Source: Bacteroidota bacterium
GTDB lineage: Bacteria > Bacteroidota > Bacteroidia > UKL13-3
Length of the DNA stretch: 64,000 bases
NCBI GenBank assembly: GCA_034439655.1
Contig: JAWXAU010000091.1
Coordinates: forward strand, 1,129 to 65,128
Direction of reading: 5' to 3'
A program made the translations under genes and the position numbers. Shown piece after piece: positions 4,054 through 59,410 of the stretch. Position 1 is the first letter of the stretch. Each line of letters opens with the position of its first letter. A model generated the notes under the pieces. It searched no databases. It had not been told where the DNA came from and was given only the letters and a program-made list of their open reading frames with translations.

Positions 4054-4199
4054 CGTCATTCTGAGTCTCGTCACACAATAATCTTGATAATAATCATGAG
4101 TTTTTAAGTCGAGGCGAAGAATCTGTTCAACGTATGTAGGTACTACAATTGTCCTCCCATCCCAAAAGATTCTTCGCGGGAAGCCCGCTCAGAATGACG
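4054..4199. repeat. MITE-like palindromic intergenic element, CGTCATTCTGA family
   Basis: Termini cgtcattctgagtc ... gctcagaatgacg are inverted. Internal inverted arms cgaagaatctg / agattcttcgc. Sits between comEC and lpdA. Related copies occur at 41379, 52393, 55044, 55807 and 59222. Confidence 0.7.
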
Positions 4200-4208
4200 T
4201 TAGGGCTT

Positions 4209-7141: not shown

Positions 7142-8077
7142 TTAGTTAAGTGCCTTATTGATATAATACAGAAAGAAATCTTTCTCATATTCGAGCATAT
7201 TTTTCATTGCTTTATTCCAATCAAGCCATCCCAGTCCCACTTGCTGCTTTCCACAACATATAGTAGGCAAAAACGAATGTATAACAGGGTACTTATTTGT
7301 AATAAATTTATGATAATACAATATCATATATGTATCACTATTACAGTTTTTTTGGGTATTGTAAAACCACATACATTCACCGCTGTCATAGCGGAGGTTC
7401 ACAGTTTCCGACGTATTACCTATCTCTAGCAGAGAATCTGAATACACATCAACCAAATCATTAAATATATAATTTCGGAATTTAATGTTGGTAGACAATA
7501 TCAAATTGTATGAAAAATCAAAAAAATCTTCTCCCTTCAAAGTCATAGGTGATGCTTTAATATCTTTGTCGCTTATTACATGATAATTAATACAAGCAGA
7601 AATCACTTCTTTTTCATCATCATTCAACATGGGCAAAAACAAATTAGCTGGCAATTCTATCAGATCAACCACTGAGTCACCCTCCAGTTCGGGTTCATTA
7701 AAGCGATACAAGATTTTTATGCGGGTTATTTGGGTTAAGGATTTACTAATATGCTGGTCCCAAAAATTAAATTTAATTCCTGCTATATTATTCTTAGTAA
7801 GCAGGAACTCACTGTTTCGCTTAGCAGCTTTCAACAGATATCTGCCTATATATACTCCTGCAATTCCACCTACTTTTTCACTTTCATAGGTGTTAAATTG
7901 ATCAGAAAAACATTTGAAAGTGGGCGAATTGATGGAATCGAAAAGTTTGTCGATATATTTATTGTACACATGCTGCGTATAGCTTCCCATAGTATTTGCC
8001 GATAAAATTTTGTGCTGCCCACACAGATGGGTACAAAAAAATATATTGATTGTACAAAAAAATAAATACTTTCGCAT
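7142..8077 (-). CDS. Hypothetical secreted protein
   Basis: 311 aa with an N-terminal signal peptide. No recognisable domain. Confidence 0.5.
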   Translation of the reverse strand: MRKYLFFCTINIFFCTHLCGQHKILSANTMGSYTQHVYNKYIDKLFDSINSPTFKCFSDQFNTYESEKVGGIAGVYIGRYLLKAAKRNSEFLLTKNNIAGIKFNFWDQHISKSLTQITRIKILYRFNEPELEGDSVVDLIELPANLFLPMLNDDEKEVISACINYHVISDKDIKASPMTLKGEDFFDFSYNLILSTNIKFRNYIFNDLVDVYSDSLLEIGNTSETVNLRYDSGECMWFYNTQKNCNSDTYMILYYHKFITNKYPVIHSFLPTICCGKQQVGLGWLDWNKAMKNMLEYEKDFFLYYINKALN

Positions 8078-8887: not shown

Positions 8888-9291
8888 GAGTAATGGCTTT
8901 CGATATTGGACTGAAGAGAATTGGCGTAGCTGTTACAGATCCACTGCAAATTATTGCTACCTCGGTAGGAACTTATTCACCCAATGATATCGCAAATTAT
9001 TTGAATGAATATATAAAAACCGAACCCTTGGAACTTTTTGTATTGGGTAAACCTTTGCAAATGGATGGCAGCAATTCGGAATCTTATCATTTGGTTGAAC
9101 AATTTTCGGCATGGCTGCAAACTACTTTCCCTGATATTCCGCAAAAATGGATTGATGAAAGACTCACGTCCAAAATGGCTTCACAGGCTTTGTTCGATAG
9201 TGGACTGAAAAAAAAACAGCGACAAGATAAAAAGTTATTGGACGCAGTATCGGCTACCTTAATTTTGCAAACTTATTTACAGTCCAAATAA
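8884..9291 (+). CDS. ruvX: Holliday junction resolvase-like protein RuvX/YqgF
   Basis: 135 aa. AFDIGLKRIGVAVTD is the RNase H-like YqgF N-terminal motif. Confidence 0.85.
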   Translation: MRVMAFDIGLKRIGVAVTDPLQIIATSVGTYSPNDIANYLNEYIKTEPLELFVLGKPLQMDGSNSESYHLVEQFSAWLQTTFPDIPQKWIDERLTSKMASQALFDSGLKKKQRQDKKLLDAVSATLILQTYLQSK

Positions 9292-9854
9292 TGATTCTTC
9301 CTATATATGCATACGGTGAGCCCGCCCTTCGCAGCGAGACTATTGAAATACAGCGTTCATTTCCACACCTCGAAGATATTATAAAAAATATGTGGGATAC
9401 CATGTACCATACCAATGGCGTGGGTCTTGCCGCCCCGCAGGTTGGTATTTCCATTCGTTTATTTGTTGTTGACTCCACAGAGATGTACAAAGAGGAGGAC
9501 GAAGACCCCAGCAAAGGAATCAAAAAAGTATTTATCAATCCCAGTATCATAAATGAATCGGGGCAGGAATGGGAGTATGAAGAAGGCTGTTTAAGTATAC
9601 CTGGCATCCGAGAATTTGTAAGCCGCAAATCCAATATCAAAATTAGATATTATGATGAGCACTTTGATACCCATACCGATGAATATGATGGCTTAACTGC
9701 CCGCGTTATTCAACACGAATTTGACCATCTAGAAGCTATATTGTTTGTAGACAAAATATCATCCCTCAAACGCCAATTGAACCGTAATAAACTTTTGCAA
9801 ATAAGCCGTGGTTTTGTGGATGTGAAATATAGGATGAAATTTGCGAGAAGGTAG
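9291..9854 (+). CDS. def: Peptide deformylase
   Basis: 187 aa. Carries the three PDF motifs GVGLAAPQVG, EGCLSIPG and HEFDHL. The start overlaps the ruvX stop (TAATG). Confidence 0.9.
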   Translation: MILPIYAYGEPALRSETIEIQRSFPHLEDIIKNMWDTMYHTNGVGLAAPQVGISIRLFVVDSTEMYKEEDEDPSKGIKKVFINPSIINESGQEWEYEEGCLSIPGIREFVSRKSNIKIRYYDEHFDTHTDEYDGLTARVIQHEFDHLEAILFVDKISSLKRQLNRNKLLQISRGFVDVKYRMKFARR

Positions 9855-9934
9855 TTCTTGTCATCCTGTCCGCCGCGGCAGATATCGAAGGATAAGCATT
9901 TTTCGACAAAAAAAAATGTACAAAAAAAATTATA

Positions 9935-13871: not shown

Positions 13872-15023
13872 ATGTGCGAAAACAAACTAATTGACATATC
13901 TAGTTGGCAAAGTGGTAGTAATGATTTCGTTCCAATAGGTAAACGTATAAAGCGAGTTGTATTTGAACCTGAGACAGAAAAATTATACTATTTTAAGGTA
14001 CCTAAAGATAAATATCCTTGGGAGTTTTGGACAGAAGTTATATCATACCAAATTGGACAAAGCTTAGGTTTTAATACCAATTCTTAAACTATAATAGTTC
14101 TCCGCCTGTGGCGGATTAGTTTGTAGAATGGTAATACCGAACTACAATACATTTAGTCCCTTTCTTTTGGACTATTATATATTGAGTTTCGGTATAATGT
14201 ATTGAAATATGAGCCTGCAATTTCTAAAGATTCTGTCGGGTGTTTATCTCCTTCTATGGTAGGAGAGCATGAAGAATTAATACACGGGCAGCAGTTCCTT
14301 ACACAAATATTGCCAACTTTTGAAACTAAAAAAGGGATAGATCATAACTTTCAGTTGATAGAATCTTTCTTTAGAGATAGTGAACATGAAGTTTCTTTCG
14401 AAGAATTTATACACATGTTAGTCTTTGATGCGATAATAGGTAACAGGGATAGGCATCAACAGAATTGGGCTATGATAAGAGGGGTTGAAATAGATGTGAA
14501 AAATCTAAAGTTAAATGCAAAAATATTTAGTCAAGATGCATCAGTATTAAAGATAATATGGCGATTAATAGGATTGGGGCTGTCGAGAAAAACGAATAAG
14601 TCAATTGCAAATATGGAAATAGAAATAAACGAACATTACAGATTTTCTCCCTTTTTTGACAATGGAAATTGTTTGGCATATAATATCATTGAATCCAAAA
14701 TTGGTGATATGGTTAAAAACGAAAAGCAGCTTGAAAATTATCTTTTCGGCAATAAAGCAGTAAGTCATGTTAAGTGGGATGGTGCATCAATTCCACATAT
14801 TGATTTACTTAAAAATGTTTCTCGCCATCATAGGGAAGCTGTTTTGACTGGCATTGAAAAGGTTAATCGAAACTTAAATGCTATATCATTTGAAGATATA
14901 GTAACAAACATTGATAATGGATTGGATGTTGTACAAAAGGATTACGTTCTATCTTTGCAGCGGAAAGAATTAATCTGCAAATTATTGAATGCAAGAGTAG
15001 CTAGGCTTTTAAGCAGTTTTTAA
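13872..15023 (+). pseudogene. HipA-like Ser/Thr kinase gene (HipA_C-type) interrupted by a 114-bp in-frame repeat insertion carrying stop codons
   Basis: ORFs 13872..14087 and 14202..15023 are in the same frame. The downstream part has the HipA catalytic motif (IIGNRDRHQQNWAMI; F.PFFDNGNCL). The upstream part carries the nucleotide-binding lysine region (KRVVFEP...YYFKVP...EVISYQIGQSLG). The 114-nt segment between them (14088..14201) opens with an 85-bp repeat copy (14088..14172) that carries TAG stops. Confidence 0.6.
14088..14172. mobile_element. 85-bp MITE-like element, copy A, inserted in the hipA-like gene
   Basis: aactataatagttctccgcctgtggcggattagtttgtagaatggtaataccgaactacaatacatttagtccctttcttttggac. 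About 90% identical to the reverse complement of 46669..46753. The core is palindromic (ccgcctgtggcgg). Confidence 0.75.
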
Positions 15024-40414: not shown

Positions 40415-40843
40415 TTGCAAAAAAGAGGCAGCATGAATGCTTATATATTTACTATGAGCAAAACCATGCAATATACAAAAGCTAAACTCTCCATCGTATA
40501 CGTATCGTTGTGGTTTGTGTTCGTATTTGCACTATGCAGTTTTCCGGGCAATCAAATTCCAAATTTCGAATTCCTGAACCAAATCAGTTTTGATAAAATT
40601 ATTCATCTCGGTATGTTTGCTGTGCAAATGGTTTTGGTGCAAAGGGCATTGTATTTAAATAACTTTTCTATAAATATATATATAATACCTATTGCAGAGC
40701 TGCTGATAGTTTGGGGTATCACTTTAGAATACATGCAAACAGTCTTCTTCATCAATCGTTTTGGGGAATGGGTGGATGCAATAGCCAATAGTTTGGGCGT
40801 AATAATTGGCGGATTTATAGCTCATAAATTATATACCAAATGA
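40415..40843 (+). CDS. VanZ-family membrane protein
   Basis: 142 aa. FDKIIHLGMFAV motif and three to four TM helices. Confidence 0.55.
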   Translation: MQKRGSMNAYIFTMSKTMQYTKAKLSIVYVSLWFVFVFALCSFPGNQIPNFEFLNQISFDKIIHLGMFAVQMVLVQRALYLNNFSINIYIIPIAELLIVWGITLEYMQTVFFINRFGEWVDAIANSLGVIIGGFIAHKLYTK

Positions 40844-41358
40844 AATTTACTGAACGCGTTGCCATTGTTTTATTCGTGATTGGATTCATTCTTAAGAGCA
40901 GTCAAGTGCAAGGTGGAGATATCATATTGGTTACCTCCTTGGCAAGTTTGTGCTTACTATATTTCCCTTTGGGCTTTTATAGTTTGAAAAAACCAAACCT
41001 CTCTGTTAAATTTATTTTTCCTTCTATCATATATGGTTTTATTTTATCGACAATGCTAGTGGGTTTGTTTTTTAAACTAATGATATTACCTGGTGGAGAA
41101 GCTTGGCAGGTCATCTGTTCCCCGTTTTGGTTTTTGGCAATTGCTACTATTATATATAAATATTTGAAAGCTACCGATGCCAAACTATATTATAGGAGTA
41201 TCCTGATAAAAAGTATTTTCTTATTGGTACTCAATATCATATTTTATATAGTTCCAGCCGAAAGTATGATAGATTTATTTAATGGAAAAGGAACTCCAGC
41301 AAGCGAGCAAATGAAAGATTACTATCATAGGCTGAAGGATAAGGAAGGGGTTTATTAG
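40840..41358 (+). CDS. Hypothetical polytopic membrane protein
   Basis: 172 aa with ~5 TM helices. Start overlaps the previous stop. Confidence 0.45.
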   Translation: MKFTERVAIVLFVIGFILKSSQVQGGDIILVTSLASLCLLYFPLGFYSLKKPNLSVKFIFPSIIYGFILSTMLVGLFFKLMILPGGEAWQVICSPFWFLAIATIIYKYLKATDAKLYYRSILIKSIFLLVLNIIFYIVPAESMIDLFNGKGTPASEQMKDYYHRLKDKEGVY

Positions 41359-41378: not shown

Positions 41379-41510
41379 CGTCATTCTGATCCCGACTTAT
41401 CGGGATTCAATGCAAAGAATCTCATAAATTTAGATTCGAAAAACAACTATATACTATCGACAGATTCTTCGCCCGAAGCGGGTTCGATAGCAATCGGACT
41501 CAGAATGACG
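41379..41510. repeat. MITE-like element, CGTCATTCTGA family (complete copy)
   Basis: cgtcattctga + hairpin tcccgacttatcgggat ... agattcttcgcccgaagcgggttcgatagc ... ggactcagaatgacg. Perfect 11-bp terminal inverted repeats. Confidence 0.8.
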
Positions 41511-45467: not shown

Positions 45468-45542
45468 CGTCATTGCGAGGAACGAAGCAATCTCGTAAAT
45501 ATTTAGGAGATTGCTTTAGTCGTGCCTCCCTCGCAATGACGG
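45468..45542. repeat. Palindromic element, GTCATTGCGAGG variant
   Basis: cgtcattgcgaggaacgaagcaatctc ... gagattgctttagtcgtgcctccctcgcaatgacgg. Nested inverted repeats. Confidence 0.7.
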
Positions 45543-46601: not shown

Positions 46602-46870
46602 ATTTTTTTCGTCATACTGTTCGCCGCGGCGAATCGTCAATAGGTAGTACCGACACTCAATATATAATAGTCCAAAAGAAAGGGACTAAATATAGTAGTT
46701 CGGCATTACCATTCTACAAACTAAATCCGCCACAGGCGGAGAACTATTATAGTTTAAGAATTGGTATAATTATTATATTACCAATAATTAAAAGACGAGG
46801 CGAAGAATCTGCTGGGGAAGTAAGCATCTTCCAACCAAAACAGATTCTTCGCAGTAAAGCAATTTTCATA
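46602..46870. repeat. Composite repeat cluster: GTCATACTG/TTCGCCGCGGCGAA unit + 85-bp element copy B (46669..46753) + CGAAGAATCTG hairpin (46796..46856)
   Basis: The 85-bp copy B is the reverse complement of 14088..14172 (~90% identity). gcgaagaatctg ... cagattcttcgc are inverted arms. The ORFs called here (46598..47002 etc.) are repeat translations. Confidence 0.7.
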
Positions 46871-52392: not shown

Positions 52393-52537
52393 TTGGGGCA
52401 AACCGTCATTCTGATCCCGACTTATCGGGATTCAATTTGAAGAATCTCATTATAGTTTGCACTATATCAAATAGGTCTTCGAATTCATGAGATTCTTCGC
52501 CCGAAGCGGGTTCGATAGCTATCGGACTCAGAATGAC
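52393..52537. repeat. MITE-like element, CGTCATTCTGA family (complete copy)
   Basis: Near-identical architecture to 41379..41510. Immediately downstream of the TonB-dependent receptor gene. Confidence 0.8.
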
Positions 52538-52545
52538 GGTTCCAA

Positions 52546-54999: not shown

Positions 55000-55043
55000 T
55001 GTTTTTTTTGGTTTGCAGTCATTCCTATTAAATCGCCATTGTG

Positions 55044-55206
55044 TTCGCCGCGGCGAATTGTTTCAATACGAAGAATCTGTTGGATCGTAGTCGAAACCCG
55101 CTCCCTATGAACAGATTCTTCGTCTCGTTTATAAAGTATTTCTAAATATTAGAAATTATCGTTTGACGAGACTCAGAATGACGTTGATGCTGACTCAGAA
55201 TGACGG
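55044..55206. repeat. Composite palindromic repeat (TTCGCCGCGGCGAA + CGAAGAATCTG hairpin + two ACTCAGAATGACG termini)
   Basis: ttcgccgcggcgaa at 55044. cgaagaatctg(55069)...cagattcttcg(55112). actcagaatgacg at 55171 and 55193. Confidence 0.7.
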
Positions 55207-55672: not shown

Positions 55673-55719
55673 AGATAGGGGAGGGATTTTGGATATAGGA
55701 CATAGGATTTTGGATATGG

Positions 55720-55851
55720 TTCGCCGCGGGGAATGGGGGTTGCTGACGCATGATTTAATTGCGATGTTTATGAACTAAGAAGTAGGATTTAGTGCTTGCT
55801 ACTATAAGATTCTTCGAATTGAATCCCGATAAGTCGGGATCAGAATGACGG
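55720..55851. repeat. Half-element of the CGTCATTCTGA family (inverse orientation) plus TTCGCCGCGGGGAA
   Basis: agattcttcgaattgaatcccgataagtcgggatcagaatgacgg is the reverse complement of the left end of 41379..41510. Confidence 0.65.
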
Positions 55852-55858
55852 CACAGGA

Positions 55859-56083
55859 CTACAAATCCCAAAGCCTATTGCGGCGGCGGCGGCGGATATA
55901 GCGTGTCATGTTTCGCCAAAAATCGACCACCATGCCAGCCACCACAAAGGGTGACCCTATAGCGATAAAACTGGTATATATAAAAAACATCCGCACCCTG
56001 CGGCTCTCAATACCCATGGTGTCGCCAAGAAAGCTAAACATTTTGAAGGCTGATTTTTCTATATAATACTTTAATTGTTCCAT
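55859..56083 (-). CDS. Small hypothetical membrane protein (PspC-like?)
   Basis: 74 aa. One TM helix and an Arg-rich C-terminus encoded by a (GCG)n run. Weak resemblance to PspC domain proteins. Confidence 0.3.
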   Translation of the reverse strand: MEQLKYYIEKSAFKMFSFLGDTMGIESRRVRMFFIYTSFIAIGSPFVVAGMVVDFWRNMTRYIRRRRRNRLWDL

Positions 56084-59221: not shown

Positions 59222-59410
59222 GTCTCCGATTCATGAGATTCTTCGCCCGAAGCGGTTCGCCAAGGCGAATCGTTGACCTGATGCGAGAATATGTCTCCGA
59301 TTCATGAGATTCTTCGTCTCGTCTTTTAAGAATTTGCACATATAATAATTATCCTCTTGACGATTCGCCGCGGCGAACAGAATGACGGTCATCTGCCGCG
59401 GCGAAGCACC
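59222..59410. repeat. Composite repeat cluster (two GATTCATGAGATTCTTCG units + TTCGCCGCGGCGAA + CAGAATGACGG)
   Basis: ccgattcatgagattcttcgcccgaagcgg (59227) is repeated at 59296. ttcgccgcggcgaa is at 59364, followed by cagaatgacgg and ctgccgcggcgaag. Confidence 0.7.

Follow-up and report, generated by a model that had tools for sequence, protein, structure and literature searches.

We analysed a 64,000-nucleotide stretch of a Bacteroidota genome (contig JAWXAU010000091.1, positions 1,129 to 65,128; hereafter the window) whose intergenic spacers carry a family of palindromic repeats, among them a 132-bp copy at 41379-41510. The reading that we favour, and consider reasonably likely, is that these elements are a variant of the CGTC-tagged superfamily of repetitive extragenic palindromes (REPs), arranged as head-to-head pairs and mobilised in trans. 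They are a variant and not a standard member of that superfamily because the hairpin unit from which they are built has tandem G·A mismatches, a GCGNAGC apex and a CTC tail.

The repeats are strongly over-represented. The motif CGTCATTCTGA, at up to one mismatch, had 10 matches in the window against an expected 0.64, and none of 100 shuffles reached 10. An earlier note on this DNA, made from its letters alone, had described an abundant, interspersed and non-coding palindromic family, and these counts show that the family is real. Locus reading combined with sub-motif mapping placed complete, partial or variant copies at nine intergenic sites (Table 1). All seven loci listed in the earlier note carry copies, two further ones (46610-46851 and the solo unit at 9859-9893) had been missed, and three sets of coordinates are amended here (52393-52537 to 52404-52538, 55044-55206 to 55033-55205, and 55720-55851 to 55709-55850). 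The density of roughly one element per 8 kb holds when it is counted as units in this genome.

Complete elements measure 130-146 bp, and each of the three complete copies (4054-4199, 41379-41510 and 52404-52538) has perfect terminal inverted repeats (TIRs) of 11-12 nt, in agreement with the 11 bp reported before. The only frame common to all copies is GTCATTCTGA … CGAAGAATCT, a centre, and AGATTCTTCG … TCAGAATGAC. A TCCCGACTTATCGGGAT hairpin is found in three copies (41379, 52404 and, inverted, at 55824) and a core AGATTCTTCGCCCGAAGCGGGTTCGATAGC in two, with a fragment at 59236; copy 4054-4199 has neither, and assigning both features to all complete copies was an overstatement.

Within this frame, each half of an element forms its own hairpin unit, with the formula (C/T)GTC, AT-N-CT, GA, x…x', GA, AG-N'-AT, CTC. 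An unpaired tag, (C/T)GTC, is followed by a 5-bp stem (AT-N-C-T), tandem G·A mismatches, one or two Watson-Crick pairs, an apex, the returning stem and the CTC tail. The stem thus has eight positions, with the conserved mismatches at positions 6 and 7, and the context of both mismatches, pyrimidine-GA-purine, is preserved (T-GA-G facing C-GA-A). The terminal ATTCT of each half is complementary to an internal AGAAT, and in the variant at 45468 both sides of the stem are altered together (ATTGC/GCAAT). Stem types include ATTCT, ATCCT, ATGCT, ATGTT and ATACT, and a few G·T wobbles are tolerated.

This architecture was recovered by several independent routes. A scan for architecture only detected 344 units in the 1.26 Mb of loci that were fetched; shuffled sequence gave 8. 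When only anchors outside the stem were searched, 18 of the 23 units that lacked the searched stem were fully complementary over five positions, and these covered nine stem types. Positions not used as search anchors were also conserved: the base preceding GTC was C in 61% and T in 32% of 310 units, and the three tail positions read C (96%), T (87%) and C (60%). In an alignment of 46 sequences (alignment A2), pair 1 was A-U in 43 and pair 2 was U-A in 40, 96.6% of cells were paired, and six of the seven pairs showed double-sided changes. None of 500 shuffles reached the observed covariation values, and every slid register collapsed, so that the conserved fold which the earlier note had proposed to look for with a covariance model is present. 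When a covariance model was trained on units from other phyla alone, 10 of its top 11 matches in the window fell at element loci, the best of them at 4164-4201, on the right unit at 4167-4199 (35.6 bits, E 4.5e-7).

The commonest loops were CGAAG, CGCAG, CGGAG and CGTAG, flanked by G and C, which yields the GCGNAGC mini-hairpin. The 5-nt inner segment CGNAG was the most frequent class (95 of 310 units) and closes into a triloop by additional pairing. In the window, the apex usually consists of nested small palindromes of 11-70 nt instead of GCGNAGC; the inserts are TCCCGACTTATCGGGA, CCCGAAGCGGG, GTTCGATAGCAATCGGAC, TTCGCCGCGGCGAA, a 49-nt AT-rich hairpin and, once, a foreign 122-bp repeat.

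The G·A mismatches and the GNA loop occur on the CGTC strand only. This is our main reason for considering that the functional form of the unit is probably a folded single strand of DNA. The commonest pan-bacterial apex is exactly the GCGNAGC motif of the DNA mini-hairpins GCGNAGC / GCGNNAGC of Hirao and co-workers (reviewed in PMC13037366), with the same GNA triloop and sheared G·A pair. The review gives a melting temperature of 76.5 °C for d(GCGAAGC) and one of 39 °C for r(GCGAAAGC), which is the related GCGAAAGC mini-hairpin as RNA (PMC13037366). The two cases differ in that mini-hairpins are described, as a structural curiosity, at single-strand phage and plasmid origins and at promoters, not in dispersed repeats (PMC13037366), and in that the window's own units mostly lack GCGNAGC.

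An alternative is that the unit acts primarily as RNA. From ORF (open reading frame) coordinates, the flanking genes are convergent at four sites (9859, 41379, 46610 and 59222), tandem at four (4054, 45468, 52404 and 55033) and divergent at one (55709), and at seven of the nine sites one edge of the element is 0-20 nt away from a stop codon, which confirms the placement in spacers at gene ends noted earlier. Such sites, mostly between convergent or tandem genes, are what would be expected if the elements were kept by selection as exonuclease barriers, processing sites or factor-dependent terminators in 3' untranslated regions (UTRs). The covariation of a folded single strand, with its few tolerated G·T wobbles, fits this explanation as well, and the text of the 2013 study on REPs argues for RNA roles (PMC3733652). 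Whole elements also fold far below shuffled controls (z of -4.2 to -9.2); scores of this kind are expected of any palindrome and therefore do not discriminate between the models.

Several observations nevertheless make a primary RNA function unlikely. The two units of a head-to-head pair occupy opposite strands, so that a given transcript can include the G·A/GNA geometry in just one of them, and the apex consensus is that of a DNA mini-hairpin, whose RNA form is far less stable. No Rfam family matched the window or 18 unit-rich loci at the gathering threshold, and none matched the elements even at E ≤ 1. Close relatives manage without elements at the same genes, while elements also occur in phage contigs and plasmids. 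The enrichment in convergent spacers across phyla was modest (21% against a background of 14%, from rough ORF calls). The more specific suggestion that the elements provide intrinsic terminators was rejected: T-runs do not follow any of the units, the count of terminator-like sites was 16 against 13.8 expected, and within units there was only one weak internal match (52427-52448). A ribozyme or K-turn reading of CUGAG…CGAAG was likewise dropped, as the hammerhead core is incomplete and Rfam gave no match. Secondary effects on mRNA 3' ends are possible.

[quoted passage not shown] Most neighbouring units were head-to-head: 81 near pairs had this orientation, and the remaining three orientations accounted for 21, 8 and 3 pairs. 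Of 84 dimers from many genomes, 64 (76%) were heterotypic, combining two different stem types. Solo units and same-orientation arrays also occur. As the outer ends of most dimers mismatch while each half pairs with itself, the conserved entity is the local hairpin and not a TIR; the perfect 11-bp TIR in the window is the special case of a homotypic dimer. In the window, the arms of copies 41379 and 52404 are 94% identical and their centres unrelated, which suggests that single units, not whole dimers, spread here. The doublet is therefore not evidently a replicating unit, unlike in REPINs. At locus L140, two dimers (2340-2450 and 7827-7936, 5.4 kb apart) are nearly identical throughout. The interval between them contains riboflavin genes, one GNAT acetyltransferase gene and one S-layer-homology gene, and their outer flanks are mutual reverse complements (CTAACGTGCT / AGCACGTTAG), so a larger inverted duplication is possible.

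Partial, rearranged and modular copies, which the earlier note had also recognised, were seen as degenerate, solo, composite and nested loci. The loops of the units behave as landing sites for small palindromes, which accounts for the chimeric, mosaic copies. A 14-nt palindrome with a SacII core, TTCGCCGCGGCGAA, recurs at 46620, 55044, 55720, 59256, 59364, 59392 and 9870; all its copies in the window lie within or beside CGTC units, and it looks like an independently mobile mini-palindrome.

A comparison with relatives indicated that the copies are young. We fetched one relative through xth (L160; 89% protein identity in xth) and three through the TonB-dependent receptor gene (L241, L243 and L244; 81-83% protein identity in the receptor). 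Synteny is kept, with ~81% nucleotide identity in the syntenic genes, but alignment of four orthologous sites shows no element in the relatives. At the xth site, where the convergent stop codons of L160 overlap, the window is longer by the 132-bp dimer and a further 20 nt. The bipA/acyltransferase spacer of the window contains a 117-nt insertion relative to L160 that includes the 74-bp variant at 45468-45541. The 135-bp dimer 3' of the TonB receptor gene (52404-52538) is absent from L241, L243 and L244, with the spacer otherwise alignable, and the 173-bp element 5' of the same gene (55033-55205) is extra relative to L243 and L244; the alignment there is too diverged for flanking repeats to be judged. 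No unit motif was present in ~54 kb from the four relatives, nor in the L243 and L244 spacers orthologous to 55709-55850. The window copies are therefore recent insertions, and the comparison points to a gain of about one unit per 8 kb in this lineage after its split from these relatives. Copies are gained or lost between close relatives, as the empty sites at 41379, 45468, 52404 and 55033 show.

Such presence and absence would also be expected of a classical MITE, that is, an internally deleted insertion sequence (IS) whose 11-bp TIRs are bound by a DDE transposase encoded elsewhere. Three copies have perfect TIRs of 11-12 nt and fall within the MITE size range, and one of the indels is bounded by an imperfect 9-bp direct repeat. 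Bacterial MITEs such as Correia/NEMIS, RUP, ERIC and Nezha are similarly non-coding, intergenic and foldable, measure 70-300 bp and in some cases have TIRs. The present elements, however, showed no target-site duplication and, in the fetched DNA, no parent IS; their ends are not conserved as a pair, and they are built from autonomous hairpin modules. There was no consistent target duplication: the flanks of five copies share no repeat, and flanks read TC/TT, AT/TT, AC/GT and CA/GT. Neither an IS with corresponding ends nor a matching transposase was detected in the ~2.1 Mb of related loci. The non-matching ends of 76% of dimers across genomes, together with the existence of solo units and same-orientation arrays, speak against this origin, and so does the covariation of terminal and internal motifs within one half, which is not predicted for an inverted repeat bound by a transposase. 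We therefore regard a classical MITE as very unlikely and do not retain the MITE-like label.

The closest known relatives are the CGTC-tagged REPs. In the text of the 2013 study by Di Nocera, De Gregorio and Rocco (PMC3733652), these comprise the families CGTC-1 to CGTC-4, including dRS3/NIME of Neisseria and RPE-4 and RPE-6 of Rickettsia. They have an unpaired CGTC/TGTC tag (CCTC is also allowed), a stem that starts with A-T and T-A, and a short tail; they are mostly head-to-head, frequently form heterodimers, lie near the 3' ends of ORFs and "apparently lack a dedicated transposase" (PMC3733652). The present elements share the unpaired tag (the window termini read CGTC), the A-T, T-A start of the stem, in part the short 3' tail (conserved over 3 nt, but with another sequence), the predominance of head-to-head dimers with common heterodimers, the intergenic position near ORF 3' ends, the absence of a flanking transposase and the occurrence in Bacteroidetes and several other phyla. 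They differ, wholly or in part, in four respects. The stem of the CGTC REPs is fully paired over 8-9 bp with at most one mismatch, whereas here five pairs are followed by two G·A mismatches and 1-2 pairs. The loop is 4-5 nt there, but GCGNAGC or, in the window, palindromes of 11-70 nt here; the tail is CCA there and CTC here; and the CGTC REPs were recorded in 5 phyla, against at least 15 here among the matches listed.

The elements also resemble the GTAG REPs with their BIME and REPIN arrangements, which are associated with RAYT (TnpA-REP, a Y1 HUH enzyme). In both, the hairpin has a 5' tetranucleotide that is conserved and unpaired, doublets are inverted and may combine different unit types, arrays are mosaic, and the elements lie at gene ends and lack target duplications. 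In contrast, the tag is GTAG (GT[AG]G) in those systems and CGTC or TGTC here, and a search of the window and of 2.09 Mb of fetched loci revealed no RAYT gene with the present units at its flanks. A literature search by sequence strings returned only noise (bla and primer matches).

The unit is widespread. Public collections were searched with the pattern AGATTCTTCG-N(4-34)-TCAGAATGACG, and the scan of GTDB contigs, with one genome per species, gave at least 120 loci. Among the matches listed, the hosts belong to at least 15 phyla and include Acidobacteriota, Omnitrophota, Chloroflexota, Planctomycetota, Patescibacteria, Melainabacteria, Clostridia, Helicobacter, Bacteroidota, Treponema, Elusimicrobia, KSB1 and one metagenome-assembled genome (MAG) of Euryarchaeota. 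The copies are thus not confined to the window, and the proposal that the family could serve as a genomic signature of this lineage does not hold; the recent expansion and the particular inserts in the loops are what belongs to the lineage alone. Of 36 matching loci in IMG/VR, 16 were non-coincidental. The other 20 (within L005-L039) were excluded as chance matches, with AGATTCTTCGTGTAAATGGCGCTCCTCAGAATGACG lying in frame inside one conserved phage structural gene. Unit-bearing plasmids were found in Calothrix, Planktothrix, Granulicella and Hymenobacter.

The distribution across genomes is patchy: in unselected loci around xth homologues (715 kb), only 3 of 80 contained real units. This patchiness argues against a general host function, such as duplex DNA sites for a nucleoid protein, a gyrase-like enzyme or a recombinase that are maintained for chromosome organisation. 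That explanation has a precedent in the REP/BIME elements of Escherichia coli, which bind IHF, gyrase and Pol I (established, and discussed in the text of PMC3733652), and the motif is indeed highly conserved across phyla. However, units are missing from four close relatives as well as from most unselected loci, and the conserved G·A non-complementarity, together with compensatory changes in the stem, fits only a folded single strand. We regard duplex binding sites as very unlikely.

We then turn to the enzyme that may mobilise the unit. Clustering of 3,754 ORFs, all against all, near ~130 unit-bearing loci revealed no recurrent neighbour other than housekeeping families, e.g. ABC ATPases and aminotransferases; the genes between or flanked by dimers include groEL, yidC, a Mur ligase gene and riboflavin genes. 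Regular-expression searches for Y1 and GIY-YIG motifs gave no match in the unit-bearing loci or the window. A tblastn search of the 2.09 Mb for Y1 transposases was also negative; its probes were four consensus sequences, of which the three class-2 ones were validated against Pfam PF01797 and one of these three also against PDB 4ER8. The cognate transposase that the earlier note had suggested looking for was accordingly found neither in the window nor in the fetched loci, and the unit-bearing Planktothrix plasmid AP017994.1 has no annotated Y1 transposase. A later survey of Y1 enzymes ties no subclass to CGTC repeats (PMC6006769).

Two side observations concern Y1 genes. In a Binatia MAG, a classical dRS3-like CGTC unit, CGTCATTCCCGCGCAGGCGGGAATCCA, lies 3.6 kb from a Y1 transposase gene (L252:5188-5210). 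Many RayT-like Y1 proteins (P0121-P0240) are encoded on contigs of only ~1 kb, which suggests that RayT-like genes, too, are bounded by repeats that break assemblies. For the present elements, short-read assembly of the same strain gave contigs that stop at a copy or no more than ~100 nt away from one (L003 at window position 41384 and L246 at window position ~4200), and these repeats therefore break assemblies.

By analogy with REP/RAYT, the hairpin is probably recognised in trans. In the mechanism we propose, the CGTC strand would be active as single-stranded DNA, since both its mismatches and its GNA loop are motifs that stabilise DNA. The folded CGTC strand would be recognised by a structure-specific enzyme whose gene lies elsewhere, much as HUH/Y1 enzymes act on REP or IS200/IS605 hairpins, and this enzyme would copy units to places beside gene ends or hairpins already present. 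Further small palindromes would land preferentially in the loops and give rise to mosaic copies, and the inserted hairpins, lying in 3' UTRs, may secondarily stabilise or punctuate transcripts. The 27-nt sequence of the unit is almost identical from bacteria of the Candidate Phyla Radiation to Acidobacteria, Bacteroidota and phages. We tentatively raise the possibility that the unit is a recognition module, specific for single-stranded DNA, of an enzyme that is horizontally promiscuous or near-universal, and that the lineage studied here was freshly invaded.

A number of points weigh against the assignment to mobile CGTC-type REPs. The units depart in part from the strict definition of a CGTC REP (a paired stem of 8-9 bp, a loop of 4-5 nt and a CCA tail), and they were set apart from the published families by the text of PMC3733652 and not by its consensus figure, so a similar subtype may exist among those families. 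Five loci around class-2 Y1 (RayT-like) genes, ~90 kb in all, contained no G·A-type unit, and one of them had the dRS3-like unit mentioned above; a link is thereby not supported, although this sample is too small to exclude action in trans, and the text of the 2013 study likewise reports no transposase flanked by CGTC repeats (PMC3733652). The window's units replace the GNA apex with larger hairpins, and in two of them a GAA-type loop lies on the opposite strand. The covariation fits single-stranded DNA and RNA alike and does not settle the choice between them. Loss in the relatives, rather than gain in this lineage, is formally conceivable. The 117-nt indel at 45468 is bounded by the imperfect 9-bp direct repeat (AGGCAGTAT / AGGCCGTAT), while no comparable repeat is present at the aligned empty sites 41379 and 52404. 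Two empty-site comparisons show nucleotides beyond the CGTC termini (20 nt, and 28 + 14 nt), and the insertion unit is thus not cleanly defined.

The individual sites are listed in Table 1.

Table 1. Repeat-bearing sites of the window and the hairpin units within them.
Site	Feature	Position (strand)	Structure	Genomic context
4054..4199 (146 bp)	Dimer, head-to-head			Between lpdA (stop 4209) and comEC (start 4018)
4054..4199	Left unit	4054-4124 (+)	Loop insert 49 nt, AT-rich	
4054..4199	Centre	4125-4166		
4054..4199	Right unit	4167-4199 (-)	Near-canonical, apex GCGGGCTTCCCGC	
9859..9893	Solo unit	9859-9893 (+)	TGTC ATCCT GT CCGCCGCGGCAGATAT C GA AGGAT; stem type ATCCT/AGGAT; first G·A degenerate	Begins 5 nt past stop of ORF 9291-9854; convergent with clpB
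41379..41510 (132 bp)	Dimer, head-to-head (flagged copy)		Centre 41423-41461	Adjoins xth stop codon (41511); 20 nt from stop of ORF 40840-41358
41379..41510	Left unit	41379-41422 (+)	Loop insert TCCCGACTTATCGGGAT; 3'-side GA changed to AA	
41379..41510	Right unit	41462-41510 (-)	Inserts CCCGAAGCGGG and GTTCGATAGCAATCGGAC	
45468..45541 (74 bp)	Variant dimer, GTCATTGCGAGG type		Stems ATTGC/GCAAT	Between bipA and acyltransferase gene
45468..45541	Left unit	45468-45494 (+)		
45468..45541	Right unit	45507-45541 (-)		
46610..46851	Degenerate unit	46610-46851 (+)	CGTC ATACT GT + TTCGCCGCGGCGAA + long arm, closing GGCGAAGAATCT at 46800-46811; foreign 122-bp repeat nested at 46647-46768; inner AGATTCTTCG at 46842-46851; right terminus missing	
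52404..52538 (135 bp)	Dimer, head-to-head			Begins 7 nt past stop of TonB-dependent receptor gene
55033..55205 (173 bp)	Dimer		Duplicated terminus CTCAGAATGACG at 55194-55205	
55033..55205	Left unit	55033-55078	Degenerate, tag CGCC, insert TTCGCCGCGGCGAA	
55033..55205	Right unit	55113-55183 (-)	49-nt AT-rich insert	
55709..55850	Solo half	55709-55850 (-)	Palindrome TTCGCCGCGGGGAA at 55720-55733	
55709..55850	Unit	55807-55850 (-)	Insert TCCCGACTTATCGGGA, as in left units of 41379 and 52404	
59222..59410	Composite		Two same-orientation units, inner ends 59236 and 59307; nested palindromes TTCGCCAAGGCGAA and TTCGCCGCGGCGAA; terminus ACAGAATGACG at 59377-59387, then further fragment GTCATCTGCCGCGGCGAA	Between convergent genes

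Some further features of the surrounding DNA were recorded. The 122-bp repeat is a separate family with two copies in the window (14074-14194 and 46647-46768), which are ~95% identical and in inverted orientation; it contains a terminator-like hairpin, TCCGCCTGTGGCGGA, followed by a T-run, and the CGTC unit at 46610-46811 holds the second copy in its loop. Just past the solo unit at 55807-55850 is a (GGC)5 microsatellite (55878-55895). At the spot 3' of the TonB receptor gene that is occupied by 52404-52538 in the window, one relative carries an unrelated palindrome of ~60 nt, GATTTGACAACTTTGC…GCAAAGTTGTCAAACC (L241:3250-3330), and this gene end seems to attract hairpin insertions. Type IX secretion tails are also encoded in the window, as is a TonB receptor that has a CarboxypepD_reg domain, and an MmeI-like restriction-modification gene is located on the source contig just past the right end of the window (L245:4091-5566).

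CGTC-tagged REPs have been known since 2013. The hairpin of the variant described here is conserved almost base for base over a large part of the bacterial tree and looks built for single-stranded DNA. Since one lineage is filled with units and its sister genomes have empty sites, the mobilising enzyme can be sought by comparative genomics; if the unit is indeed a recognition module of such an enzyme, differential gene content could reveal the long-missing transposase of the CGTC REPs. In practical terms, the units break short-read assemblies and create spurious ORF tails in annotation. In the organism itself, they lie in the 3' UTRs of core genes and may affect the fate of the corresponding mRNAs.

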